A stretch of DNA of 64,000 nucleotides from Eledone cirrhosa. Taxonomy: Eukaryota. Under the pieces are notes generated by a model, which saw nothing but the letters and a program-made list of their open reading frames with translations, did not search any database and was not told where the DNA came from. The position numbers and the translations under genes were made by a program. Positions 1,792 to 5,227 of this stretch are shown here, in pieces (position 1 is the first letter of the stretch; each line of letters begins with the position of its first letter). The DNA lies in contig OZ024741.1 of assembly GCA_964016885.1 (NCBI GenBank), positions 16,554,001 through 16,618,000 on the forward strand, written 5' to 3'.

Positions 1792-1849
1792 ATACTATGA
1801 TCATTTCAATGACCGGGTTCCGTATGAATCCGGTGATATCATCAGGTAT
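1792..1849 (-). ncRNA. type I hammerhead ribozyme motif (Penelope pLTR-like)
   Basis: Minus strand: atac-CTGATGA-t atcaccgg...ccggtcat t-GAAA-t GATC a-TA-gtat-AATAAA. Intact core, 4-bp stem I, palindromic stem III loop. Confidence 0.75.
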
Positions 1850-3009
1850 TCGAAATATAATACGTGAATGTAATAGATAAAATCCATGGGGCTGAAAATC
1901 GAGGACCCGAGGGCGACCGCTATTCTGCTCCTTCAACTTCAGCCGGTCGCCCTCGAGTGACGTGGCTAAAGTTTACAGTATGCTACTACCGGTCAGATAA
2001 ACGAAAACAGAAAGGGATGGGAACATAAGTTAGCCTCAATCTCATGTCACAAGGTAAAAGAAAGAAAGAAAGGAAGGAGAGAGAAGAAGGGGGAACAAAG
2101 AAGAAGAGAAGCCAGGTTTAATGTCAGCTATAAGAAGAAAGGCAACTACTACCGGTCAGATATAGGCAAGCAAAAGGGGGAAGGAAGATAAGTCTGCGGG
2201 AGGAAGACAGGAAGAGGGGAGAAGAGAAGGAAGAGAAGAGAGAAGTAGAAAAGTAAGGGTTGATGGCTACCAGAAGGAAGATAGAAAGAAAGAGGAAGAA
2301 AGGTCGATATTAATGTCAGACCACAGTCAGGCCAAGAGTAGCGCGAGAAAATTTTCACAGGGACCTGCATCTTAGCAGAGGTGAATATATTGGGAGTCAG
2401 TGTGTTACAATGTTTAGACTTATAGGATGAAGTTAAAAAATTAATAATCCATATTCAATATTAAAGAGGTTAGAAAATTTAAAGTTCAACAGTTTAACAT
2501 TTTCAGGTTGATATATATAATAGTTCCGATTTGTTCTGTAATTTAAAGGTACTATGTGGCGGTTAAAACACCGGCCGCGCCCCGGGCCCCATGGCGAATT
2601 AAGCTACGCCGAGTATTTTCATTTACCGAAAGAGGGGGAAATTTATTTTCCCAAGCACTCCAGGTAAGCTCGTGCGCCAGGGTGCTGGTCGCGCCGCCAT
2701 TAGAACCCACCCACCAGTTCGACAGAAAGTTGGAACTTTAAAATATTGCTTAACTTTATCGGATGAAGTTGAAAGAATTCAGAATAACATTATAAAATTA
2801 AAGAGTAAGAAGATTGAGAATTGAACAAACAGAAAATGGAAGATTAAACATTCAAATAACTTCTATGAGGTTTTGGGTTGCGGGGTTTAATTAAAGAGAG
2901 TCTTTTATGAAGAAAGGTTAATTGTATTATATGTATATATATATATGGGTCCTGGGCGTAACCACAGTAAGGTATGCAATACATACGCAGTATTGAATAT
3001 AGAAATGGC

Positions 3010-3054
3010 TTCTACAGGACTAGAACTGTTTCATTCGAAGGAAATCACCAGGAA
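3010..3054 (-). ncRNA. hammerhead-like motif with one core mismatch
   Basis: Minus strand: ttc-CTGGTGA-tttc cttc gaat-GAAA-cag ttctagtc ctg-TA-gaa. A related copy with an intact CTGATGA lies at 40951-40995. Confidence 0.6.
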
Positions 3055-3119
3055 TTTTATATATATATTTATATAATATAAAACAAAAAATCAGTGATGC
3101 ATCTGGACTCAGTTTATTG

Positions 3120-3209
3120 TGTGTTACAATTGTTTCGCCGGCAGATAGCTCGAGACAGGATCATTGTATGGATCTGTCTGATTCTAGATCTGCAGATTCT
3201 TCGGACACA
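3120..3209 (-). ncRNA. hammerhead-like motif with extended stem II
   Basis: Minus strand: tgtgt-CCGAAGA-(61-nt hairpin with gcagat/atctgc and agacag/ctgtct)-GAAAC AATT GTA-acaca-c-AATAAA. Confidence 0.7.
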
Positions 3210-3231
3210 TGCAATACTTTCGGAACAAACT

Positions 3232-3387
3232 TTCTCTCTCTCTCTCTCTCACTCTCTCTCTCTCTCTCTCTCTCTCTCTCTCTCTCTCTCTCTCTCTCTA
3301 TATATATATATATATATATATATATATATATATATATATATATATATATATATATATATATATATATATATATATACATATATATAT
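3232..3387. repeat. (CT)n(TA)n microsatellite
   Basis: Read directly. Confidence 0.98.
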
Positions 3388-3583
3388 TTCGTTTCTGAAT
3401 TTGTTTAGCAAGATTCTTTAGCTGAAAACGTGTGTTGAAACCGATATTGTTATACTTTGGGAGGGTCATGTTGCCAATAAGGAACACACGTACCAGTTGC
3501 TTTCACTCCAATTTATTATAAATTTAAGAATTTATAAATTTCCGGTTGGTTGGTTCCACAACCAGACGATTGTTCATATATTG

Positions 3584-3624
3584 TCAAAGTTCTTTCGTCA
3601 CACATTCTGTGACCTCTTCAGTGA
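3584..3624 (-). ncRNA. minimal type I hammerhead motif
   Basis: Minus strand: tca-CTGAAGA-g gtcaca gaatg tgtgac-GAAAG aa CTT-tga. Perfect 6-bp stem II and 3-bp stem I. Confidence 0.65.
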
Positions 3625-4124
3625 TTGGGGATTATTTTCTTTGTTTTGTGCCTCTCTTTTGTTCTGTTCTACGCCATCTTGTTTTTGTGTGTGTTGTGTG
3701 CTTAGTTTGCGCATGTATTACATCCGGGTGTCTGTGTGTGTTTATATTTGTTAATTTATTTGTTTATTTATATGTTACTGGTTGGTTGTTTGTTCTATGT
3801 GTGTGTGTGTTTTCATTTTGTCCTTAATTGTAAGTTGTGATGTTGCTATTCCATTCATGTTTTCTATTTAATTTGGTTGGAGTTCATGTTTATTGCCCCT
3901 GTGATTTGTCTAAACATTGCGTCTTTTCTGTGTGTAGATTCTATTTTTTTATTTTTTTTATTTTTATTTCTAGAAAACAAAAAAAAATTTTAAAAAATGC
4001 GTGTGTTACAACCAATATCAAAATTTGAAAGATTTGGAAAATATTAGCTGAAGTAGAAAACCTGTGTGTCAGAATCGAGAAGTGTAAATATCGAGAAGTA
4101 TATATATATATATATATATATATA

Positions 4125-4265
4125 TAGAAAGGATAAAAAGGACGATTGATTATTCCTTCATTGCATTTATTGATAGGTGACGCGCGTTTCGCCACTGATC
4201 AGCTCAAGGCTCGATCCATATCGATCCTACCCGACTCAATAATCCGCAGCTCGACGGACCCTCTT
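4125..4265 (-). repeat. dispersed repeat carrying the 3' half of a hammerhead (GAAAC GCGC GTC...AATAAA); second copy at ~41330-41465
   Basis: Both sites share catttattga..gtgacgcg.gttt.gc.a.tgatcagctcaaggct.gatc and both abut (TA)n. The CTGA core was not found. Confidence 0.55.
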
Positions 4266-4665
4266 AAAATGCTATAAGAAAATGAAATACATGCTCTGTG
4301 GTAAAGTCAGAGATTCAAGAGTTTGACAAAATGAGTTGTTTTGATTGGTGGGAAGGATCAAGGCGATGTACTGGCCTGTAGTGTATACTCCCGGGTGAAC
4401 CTGCAGTAACTCCTAGTTACACCCTCTGGATATATATATATATATATATAAACATCTTTAAGTCGTTTGGAAGCCTCGACAATGCAAATGGGTAAATCTC
4501 CGGGTAACAAGATCCGGTGGTGGAGAGAGAGATGTAAGTGGGTGTACGTTGAGATGCGTGGTGTGTAAAGATGTGTAAATGTGTAGAAGAAAGAAGGGAA
4601 GAGTATAAAGGATAAAATAAAAATAACAACACAAGAGAGAGTTACCTTGGGAGAGATTTAATAGT

Positions 4666-4702
4666 CCCTATATATTTCGGATTCGCATCCATCAACTGGG
4701 GG
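4666..4702 (-). ncRNA. degenerate hammerhead-like motif
   Basis: Minus strand: cccc-CAGTTGA-t ggat GCGA atcc-GAAA tata TA-ggga-ct-ATTAAA. Two core mismatches, but stems and spacing fit. Confidence 0.4.
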
Positions 4703-4749
4703 TTTTTTCCGGGGTAAAGGTTATCTGTCGGACAGGTGCGAAACGCGTC

Positions 4750-4793
4750 CTCCGCTGTTTGTTGTTTTGTATTCAAAACAACAAACAGCGGAG
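4750..4793. other. perfect 20-bp inverted repeat with a 4-nt loop
   Basis: ctccgctgtttgttgttttg-tatt-caaaacaacaaacagcggag. Confidence 0.95.
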
Positions 4794-4841
4794 AGGCAGA
4801 CAAATAAAGGTTTATTAGGTTCACGCTTTTGAGGGGGGGGG

Positions 4842-4869
4842 GACGTTTCGGGCATAAGCCCTTCTTCAG
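4842..4869 (-). ncRNA. minimal Penelope-type hammerhead core
   Basis: Minus strand: CTGAAGA-a gggc ttat gccc-GAAAC GTC, followed by AATAAA at 4811-4816. Stem I pairing is not evident. Confidence 0.7.
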
Positions 4870-5097
4870 GAGTAAATAGGTTAGGAAGAGAGTTCAGAGA
4901 GGGTGTGTGGAAATATATATATGCTCAGAGAGTGGGATCGGTCGAGTGCAAGGCCTTTCCCCACTTAAAAAACCTTCAAAGCACAGGCATTGCTTGTTCA
5001 GAAGTCATTATATATATATGTGTGTGTGTGTGTGGGTGTGTGTGTGTAGAACAATAGAAAAAAAAACAAAACAGAAGTCAGCCGTAGATAGTTGATT

Positions 5098-5227
5098 GTT
5101 TTACGATCGCTTCAGAGGGTTGATTGATTGACGGAGATCGATGTATCGACTAGAATGTTAGTGGTTCGTTTACCACCTATTACTAGTCTCGAAAACCCAC
5201 TTCAACCGGCCGTCCTCCTCAATATAC
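5098..5227 (-). ncRNA. degenerate hammerhead-like motif with ~100-nt branched stem II
   Basis: Minus strand: TTGAGGA-(102 nt with gactag/ctagtc and gtggt/accac helices)-GAAGC GATC GTA-aaac-aatcaa. Confidence 0.4.

Follow-up and report, generated by a model that had tools for sequence, protein, structure and literature searches.

Hammerhead-like motifs stacked on one strand of the Eledone cirrhosa genome: probable serial insertion of Penelope-like end pieces

Introduction

How did eight different hammerhead ribozyme-like motifs come to lie in one orientation within about 3.5 kb of the Eledone cirrhosa genome, and what might they do there? The motifs lie near the start of a 64,000-nucleotide stretch of contig OZ024741.1 (assembly GCA_964016885.1, positions 16,554,001 to 16,618,000), which we refer to as the window and whose coordinates are used throughout. 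An initial annotation had placed the motifs in pseudo-long terminal repeats (pseudo-LTRs) of Penelope-like elements, at a hotspot where a read-through transcript could be cut into unit-length RNAs, as with retrozymes. We estimate a probability of about 0.8 that the region is a stack of 5'-truncated end pieces from nine Penelope-like families that inserted serially into (TA)n, with their common direction due to chance. The unusual part of the locus, as read from sequence, is that three young families have spread with altered, probably weak or inactive ribozyme cores.

Results and Discussion

Hammerhead-Like Motifs in Dispersed Penelope-Like Families

Read by register, the minus strand of 1600-5260 carries eight hammerhead-like motifs, at about the places first proposed (Table 1). 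A descriptor scan of 1600-5600 that tolerated both a long helix II and one additional base behind A9 recovered two of the eight with a canonical core, three with at most one core change, and four with at most two, while the plus strand yielded zero matches. The corresponding counts in 100 dinucleotide shuffles (one strand each) were 0, 0, and 2, which bears out the expectation that motif density exceeds that of shuffled sequence. A stricter scan without the extra base recovered none of the eight, and an Rfam search of the whole window at E <= 10 detected no hammerhead; on a sub-region, Rfam returned a single weak Hammerhead_1 match (4169-4208, E 3.7). AATAAA or ATTAAA follows the cut site within 70 nt in six motifs. 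Single-strand folding was given no weight because the z-scores of the motifs were weak (-1.5 to +0.7); the minimum-energy structure of the F1601 copy has the hammerhead shape (z -1.2).

Each block belongs to a separate dispersed family, and the motif sits in the end repeat (pseudo-LTR) of that family. Every block family had at least 39 other genome matches, with the best 40 candidates scored per search. As had been anticipated, searches with the blocks led to linked Penelope open reading frames (ORFs): five of the eight motif families connect elsewhere in the genome to an ORF with a reverse transcriptase (RT) plus a GIY-YIG endonuclease at the C-terminus. The evidence comprises Pfam matches to RVT_1 and GIY-YIG for F4450 and F3390, a tblastn match for F4790, a broken copy (locus L151) for F4130, and a sibling subfamily for F2945. 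The endonuclease is C-terminal in all five families, and for these the Naiad clade, in which GIY-YIG is N-terminal, was rejected. Clade labels (Hydra, Neptune, Nematis) are based on motifs, and a homologue search yielded only unnamed relatives. For Hydra, an RWK-like motif, DKT, a CxCX5C linker, and an endonuclease free of CCHH were sought and found, with RWRA and ADKT read by eye in L151 and RWRA, SDKT, and CNCLNKETC in elements of the F2945 sibling subfamily. Collectively, these observations indicate that the motifs are type I hammerhead-like and reside in pseudo-LTRs of Penelope-like families; any self-cleavage would be expected at NUH.

Conservation of the core CUGANGA...GAAA...NUH differs between families and individual copies. 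The family majority is canonical in five of the eight (F1601, F2945, F3390, F4790, and F5098) and altered in three; among the window copies, three have a canonical core and only two combine it with helix I. A palindromic helix III, which would allow homodimers and had been noted in several motifs, is present in five window copies and in six families, F3390 and F2945 being the exceptions. Helix III is stable in only one window copy, that of F2945, which carries A6G.

These features bear on the proposal that read-through transcription of the minus strand yields an RNA which each hammerhead would cleave, releasing RNAs of unit length that may be circular. The common orientation, the poly(A)-like signals after six motifs, and the fold of the F1601 copy would suit such a process. 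However, the units are not repeats of one sequence, and apart from the scarcity of copies with both a canonical core and helix I, the A6G of F2945, the lack of an adjoining helix I in F4790, and the decay of the F5098 copy all count against it. Single minimal motifs of this kind show no cleavage and dimers little, with a short helix III needing a dimer partner (Cervera and de la Pena, 2014, PMC4209133). Among 56 cross-family pairings, only one reached at least three helix I pairs together with a helix III pairing of 0.8, and it did so via three G-U pairs. No composite copy was observed among the top matches, and a true tandem array in this genome (11 x 310 bp, L195) looks quite different. The proposal is thus unsupported because the units are unrelated and cross-family dimers do not fit, and we regard it as very improbable. 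A non-LTR retrozyme array, which would comprise at least two successive copies of one unit with a complete hammerhead in each, was likewise rejected, as 1600-5300 contains no tandem period of that kind.

Insertion History of the Stack

The blocks had been described as bounded by (TA)n, and this association extends to their families: in 125 of 137 family copies the 3' side has (TA)4+ or (CA)4+ no more than 170 nt away, compared to 24% of background windows. Window copies differ from the column majority of their own families by 0.0, 1.2, 1.5, 1.9, 2.3, 2.4, 4.4, and 11.9%, and family medians range from 0.6 to 6.5%. For two of the blocks, none of the best 40 scored candidates contained a match spanning two blocks. 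The differing ages, together with the lack of a two-block composite among top matches, suggest that insertion was likely serial and spread over a long time.

A single repair or capping event, in which RT jumped from RNA to RNA to form a terminon-like head-to-tail chain, would account for the co-orientation and head-to-tail order of the pieces, and the direct junction of F4790 with F4450 does show microhomology. Yet the ages of the pieces differ (0-11.9%), the parent elements encode endonucleases, the locus lies 16.6 Mb inside a 416-Mb contig, and the spacers are (TA)n and unrelated repeats rather than telomeric sequence. We give this explanation very little credence. A chain of Athena/terminon elements, which are endonuclease-less and telomeric, was rejected in view of the GIY-YIG domains of the parents, the internal position, and the (TA)n spacers.

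Serial insertion could have proceeded as follows. The endonuclease would nick (TA)n, and RT would copy the RNA from its 3' end and stop early, so that nothing but the end repeat, including its hammerhead and poly(A) signal, would remain. Insertion would leave TA on both flanks, creating new targets on which stacks could build. Consistent with this, (TA)n targets, inverted 5' pieces, and tails are described for the Hydra, Neptune, and Nematis clades (Craig et al., 2021, PMC8557442). In each copy the sequence before and after the cut site is retained, as is a tail, which suggests that the RNA that was copied was uncut or had been re-joined. The motifs may act, if at all, as homodimers in tandem or fold-back transcripts of their own family and not in the stack.

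Density and Orientation Relative to the Genome

As background, we sampled 96 evenly spaced 10-kb stretches (L170-L225 and L258-L297; 959.6 kb) of the 3.0-Gb genome. The sample yielded 67 canonical motifs, of which a single array accounts for 11, compared to 0 in 280 kb of shuffles. The density is put at ~59 canonical motifs per Mb; ~30 families were recognized among all loci examined. A rough extrapolation gives 178,000 canonical motifs genome-wide with the array counted once (range 115,000-247,000). Helix II exceeded 40 nt in 17 of 68 sampled matches and reached 116 nt. A library of the 30 families identified 123 pieces in the 96 stretches, including chains of six and eight pieces (gaps <2 kb) of mixed direction.

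Neighbouring pieces of different families were oriented as 8 same, 20 opposite, and 10 ambiguous in the sampled stretches and as 34, 43, and 22, respectively, around 140 family loci (pooled, 42, 63, and 32). The excess of opposite neighbours is probably largely geometric, since 3' ends lie closer together in convergent pairs. Because neighbours elsewhere are not co-oriented, a shared direction is not a rule of insertion and is likely due to chance here. The idea of a hotspot with one orientation is therefore supported as to density but not as to a mechanism of orientation. We estimate, very widely, from one eight-piece chain per 96 stretches, that some tens of fully co-oriented chains would be expected by chance among thousands genome-wide. 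Strand domains over 304 kb were considered and rejected, as 12 runs compared to 14.4 expected (hand count, stack as one) is not significant.

The direction of the pieces might alternatively reflect serial insertion followed by selection, if the region were a plus-strand intron or long transcript that was cleared of sense pieces bearing a poly(A) signal and ribozyme. An antisense bias of intronic retroelements is established, and between 1.7 and 73 kb every unambiguous piece of a hammerhead family lies on the minus strand. However, no host-gene Pfam domain was identified in ORFs over 304 kb (97 + 77 selected ORFs, a set in which short or non-coding exons would be missed), all Pfam matches were to transposon proteins or their zinc fingers, and RT pieces of long interspersed nuclear elements (LINEs) occur on both strands of the window. 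Selection of this kind appears unlikely.

Several observations weigh against serial insertion with a chance direction. For a single stack on its own, a shared direction of nine out of nine pieces has p = 0.004. With eight families in 3.3 kb, the window is an outlier relative to the sampled stretches, where any 3.5 kb held at most five, although this comparison favours the window because the library was partly seeded from it; the expectation of a density above background is thus upheld with that reservation and against a general level of ~60 motifs per Mb. Beyond the stack, the minus strand carries more pieces at 41.4 and 73-79 kb, and a run of seven elements on the plus strand comes next, at 93-147 kb. 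Searches for an ORF partner came up empty for F1601, F3080, and F5098. Lastly, the divergence values lean low, as loci were chosen as best matches to the window. Taken together with the evidence above, we nevertheless favour the conclusion that the stack is dense but ordinary nesting in (TA)n, of the kind described in 2014.

Altered Cores as Family States

The initial annotation considered several cores mutated. Decay describes the F5098 copy and a subfamily change the A6G of F2945. In contrast, CCGAAGA (F3080), CCGTCGA (F4130), and CAGTTGA (F4450) are fixed family states and not decay.

F3080 has the core CCGAAGA (U4C, 3204) with a 61-nt helix II, the palindrome ACAATTGT, and AATAAA at +6; CCGAAGA is present in 23 of 28 aligned rows, and the window copy is 1.9% from the majority. 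F4130 has CCGTCGA (U4C and A6U, 4257), a 60-nt helix II, the palindrome ACGCGCGT, and AATAAA at +7, with CCGTCGA in 16 of 20 rows and the window copy 1.2% from the majority. This motif had been taken for a 3' half at 4174-4190; the half is real, and its 5' half is CCGTCGA at 4257-4251, in the same register as CTGACGA of a sibling subfamily (L282). The 4257 register was chosen by stems alone in 24 of 24 matches when the scan carried no heptamer constraint. F4450 has CAGTTGA (U4A and A6U, 4698), an extra U, a 4-bp helix II, the palindrome ATATAT, a 3-bp helix I, and ATTAAA at +6; its median copy divergence is 0.6%, and CAGTTGA is present in 22 of 28 rows. The F4450 pattern, left free at positions 4, 6, and 7, has 2,716 exact genome matches (1,343 and 1,373 by strand), and CAGTTGA occurs in all 100 listed of these. 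CAGUUGA accompanied a recent burst to thousands of copies. At the family level, a core-free scan identified changes mainly at positions 4 and 6.

The stems of the motifs had been described as mutually unrelated, which does not apply to F3080 and F4130: their motifs align as homologues with 71% mean column identity. CCGTCGA recurs in an F3080 subfamily (L016, L301), and canonical siblings of the lineage exist (L055, L282). Covariation of the helices was measured on this lineage. Across 14 sequences, 84.9% of cells are paired, compared to 27-35% in slid controls, and 9 of 28 pairs changed on both sides; shuffle counts from this analysis are not probabilities because the sequences are related. 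RNAalifold recovers helix II unaided, with 7 of 16 pairs compensatory. The expectation of consensus cores with covarying stems is therefore realized in part, given the altered majority in three families and the lack of helix I in F4790.

Are the altered cores active? U4C is a viroid variant with reduced activity in vitro, and A6C and an insertion after A6 have low activity (Perreault et al., 2011, PMC3088659). The double changes U4C + A6U and U4A + A6U do not appear in the portion of that paper considered. Since U4C lowers activity in a viroid and changes at A6 do likewise, the likelier reading is that the altered cores are weak or dead and the elements spread regardless. A relaxed hammerhead is a doubtful alternative: positions 4 and 6 would be free (CCGUCGA, CAGUUGA, CCGAAGA), and the motifs would be active natural variants that break the CUGA turn. 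Such a relaxed core would keep C3-G8, G5, A9, GAAA, a palindromic helix III, and a long covarying helix II. If true, standard searches would miss relaxed cores in this genome, which has an estimated 180,000 or so canonical motifs.

In sequence terms, the long-helix, altered-core motifs of young families appear to be a new variant. CCGUCGA and CAGUUGA were not found in print, in a search that excluded figures and Lunse et al. (2017; Penelope variants), which may describe such cores. The main text of the Octopus vulgaris repeat paper mentions neither hammerheads nor ribozymes, and two scans of metagenome contigs for relatives of the F4450 protein confirmed none. A-to-I (adenosine-to-inosine) editing, suggested by the A6G of F2945, was rejected, as seven of eight families show no excess of A>G over T>C. 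In F4790 the values are 25.0 and 22.3 per kb, respectively, and the apparent excess of G is due to best-hit bias.

Architecture of the Individual Pieces

Table 1. Pieces of the stack and associated repeats (window coordinates), with the register of each motif on the minus strand.
Feature	Coordinates	Strand	C3 / last base before cut	Description
F1601	1591..2930	-	1845/1796	Copy, truncated at its 5' end, of a Penelope-like unit that lacks an ORF; elsewhere the unit is ~2.4 kb long and has end repeats in tandem and inverted form
F2945	2950..3056	-	3051/3013	Pseudo-LTR piece; hammerhead with 4-bp helix III
F3080	3065..3239	-	3204/3125	Pseudo-LTR piece homologous to F4130; probably Hydra type
(TA)n array	3299..3387	.		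Longest between pieces; others near 1563-1597, 2925-2945, 4099-4126, and 4430-4452
F3390	3390..3950	-	3621/3587	3' end of Neptune-like element: last GIY-YIG codons (3944-3827, ~40 codons), then pseudo-LTR
Ninth fragment	3974..4088	-		Internal 3' piece of another family, with no hammerhead in it
F4130	4120..4450	-	4257/4179	3' end of Hydra-type element (4120-4387) and inverted tail piece (4388-4450)
F4450	4440..4793	-	4698/4669	Pseudo-LTR of young 3.4-kb RT + GIY-YIG element; short inverted 5' piece at 4772-4793
F4790	4791..4921	-	4869/4842	3' piece of Neptune-like element; GIY-YIG ~1.5 kb upstream in L154 and L155
Dispersed repeat fragment	4921..5001	.		34 matches in examined loci; no hammerhead or Penelope link seen
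F5098	5045..5222	-	5222/5102	Decayed copy of a short (~200 bp), old family

F1601 carries a canonical CTGATGA...GAAA TGATCA TA motif, with a 31-nt helix II and AATAAA at +4; its core is present in 22 of 22 rows, and the window copy is 2.3% from the family majority. The U-U at the base of its helix II resembles that of HHR_Amex2 from axolotl (Cervera and de la Pena, 2020, PMC7229834; Li et al., 2026, 10.64898/2026.07.22.740005). The core of the F2945 window copy is CTGGTGA, and unselected copies have CTGATGA in 14 of 18 cases; a sibling subfamily (76-84% identical) borders an RT + GIY-YIG ORF of Hydra type whose linker is CxCX5C. F3390 has a canonical CTGAAGA (37 of 42 rows), a weak, non-palindromic helix III, and AATAAA at +69, and its parent has a CX4CxxC linker. 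No RT or GIY-YIG ORF had been seen in the region, which holds but for the GIY-YIG C-terminus in this piece. In the family of the ninth fragment, a Hydra-type GIY-YIG lies upstream on the same strand in four of seven fetched copies. F4130 elsewhere runs through a 2-kb 3' untranslated region (UTR) into the broken ORF of L151, with its RWR and DKT motifs, and the F4450 element consists of inverted repeat, RT, GIY-YIG, and direct repeat, with a linker that we take to be Nematis-like.

The F4790 motif has the form CTGAAGA-A-helix II-GAAACGTC, with AATAAA at +25. A stem I had been assigned to every motif, and this one is the exception: no helix I adjoins the core in the window or in the family. Across subfamilies of the lineage that are 71-75% identical (the window copy, L139, L171, L250, and L284), the two halves of the core persist, as does a covarying helix II, and older subfamilies have a 4-5 base complement of the 3' arm ~25 nt upstream. 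We can only guess, by analogy with Penelope of Drosophila virilis, that the fold might depend on splicing. Other copies of F5098 have CTGAGGA, a 102-nt helix II, and GAAAC GATC GTA; the window copy has lost the 5' arm of helix I, carries C3U and GAAG, and is 11.9% from the family majority. No common upstream sequence was detected among 19 copies of this family. The block at 5318-5440 had no other match in the genome search.

Pseudo-LTRs occur in direct and inverted arrangement, as in L226-L228, and 76 of 85 mixed-strand groups are head-to-head. F4450 and F4130 each have two classes of 3' end. Tails of 40 or 110 nt occur, in line with Craig et al. (2021, PMC8557442). TGAACC, often as GTGAACCT, recurs near the 3' ends of F1601, F4130, F4790, and F2945, which are otherwise unrelated.

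Many of these features resemble the Penelope hammerheads of Cervera and de la Pena (2014, PMC4209133): CUGANGA(H)...GAAAN-palindrome-NUH with a short helix I, an extra base after A9 in several families, an AU-rich 3' flank, a large number of families in one genome, copies that are for the most part single and truncated, and close inverted pairs. Unlike those, where helix II is 7-8 bp, several families here have a helix II of 60-116 nt, CCGUCGA and CAGUUGA are fixed, and one lineage is without an adjacent helix I; the density of ~60 per Mb, obtained with our own descriptor, is not directly comparable. The C-terminal GIY-YIG, (TA)n targets, tandem and inverted end repeats, and tails are shared with the EN+ (endonuclease-encoding) clades Hydra, Neptune, and Nematis, as are RWR, DKT, and CxCX5C in the F2945 and F4130 parents and the CX4CxxC linker in F3390 (Craig et al., 2021, PMC8557442). 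Hydra elements are reported there to carry canonical hammerheads, whereas F4130 and F3080 have a long helix II, altered cores, and 3' UTRs of up to ~2 kb. Non-LTR retrozymes share type I motifs, ORF-less derivatives, and a link to Penelope pseudo-LTRs (Cervera and de la Pena, 2020, PMC7229834; Li et al., 2026, 10.64898/2026.07.22.740005), but are tandem repeats of one 150-450 bp unit, whereas the stack consists of nine unrelated pieces of different ages.

Neighbouring Elements and Other Loci

Two further Penelope end pieces occur at 40871-41055 and 41352-41464, with the main pieces on the minus strand: one is F2945 with an inverted piece, the other an older F4130 subfamily with CCGACAA. At 73.0-79.7 kb (L168-L169, window coordinates) and at 122.3-131 kb there are nearly complete elements of Hydra type whose end repeats are F2945-like, the latter within an 8.5-kb tandem duplication. 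Elsewhere in the genome, L195:281-3381 (C3 near 190.0 Mb) comprises 11 tandem 310-bp units, each with a canonical type I hammerhead (CTGATGA...GAAAC GC GTA). This array fits the definition of a retrozyme and gives a weak Rfam match to HH9 (E 0.007).

Other repeats of the window include a hAT transposon at 6100-8160 (minus strand), whose open frame (Dimer_Tnp_hAT) spans 462 aa and which also carries a Spin-doc zinc finger, and a 22.5-kb GT-rich satellite at 9096-31667, with a 10-base unit and strong strand skew. LINE copies in which RT is followed by a PHD finger occur on both strands (41751-44721, 52490-53268, 55884-58238, and 61145-62509; also L168:1561-4680). A short repeat at 1117-1190 resembles an octopus short interspersed nuclear element.

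Implications

The locus gives a cross-section of a hammerhead population that is both very large and varied. Whether the hammerhead merely parasitises Penelope elements is a question raised by Craig et al. (2021, PMC8557442). Through the young families, whose doubly altered cores coexist with canonical siblings in the same frame, the hammerhead's role in these elements can be put to the test. Were the variants dead, transposition could do without cleavage; were they to cut, the consensus now accepted for the core would be too narrow.

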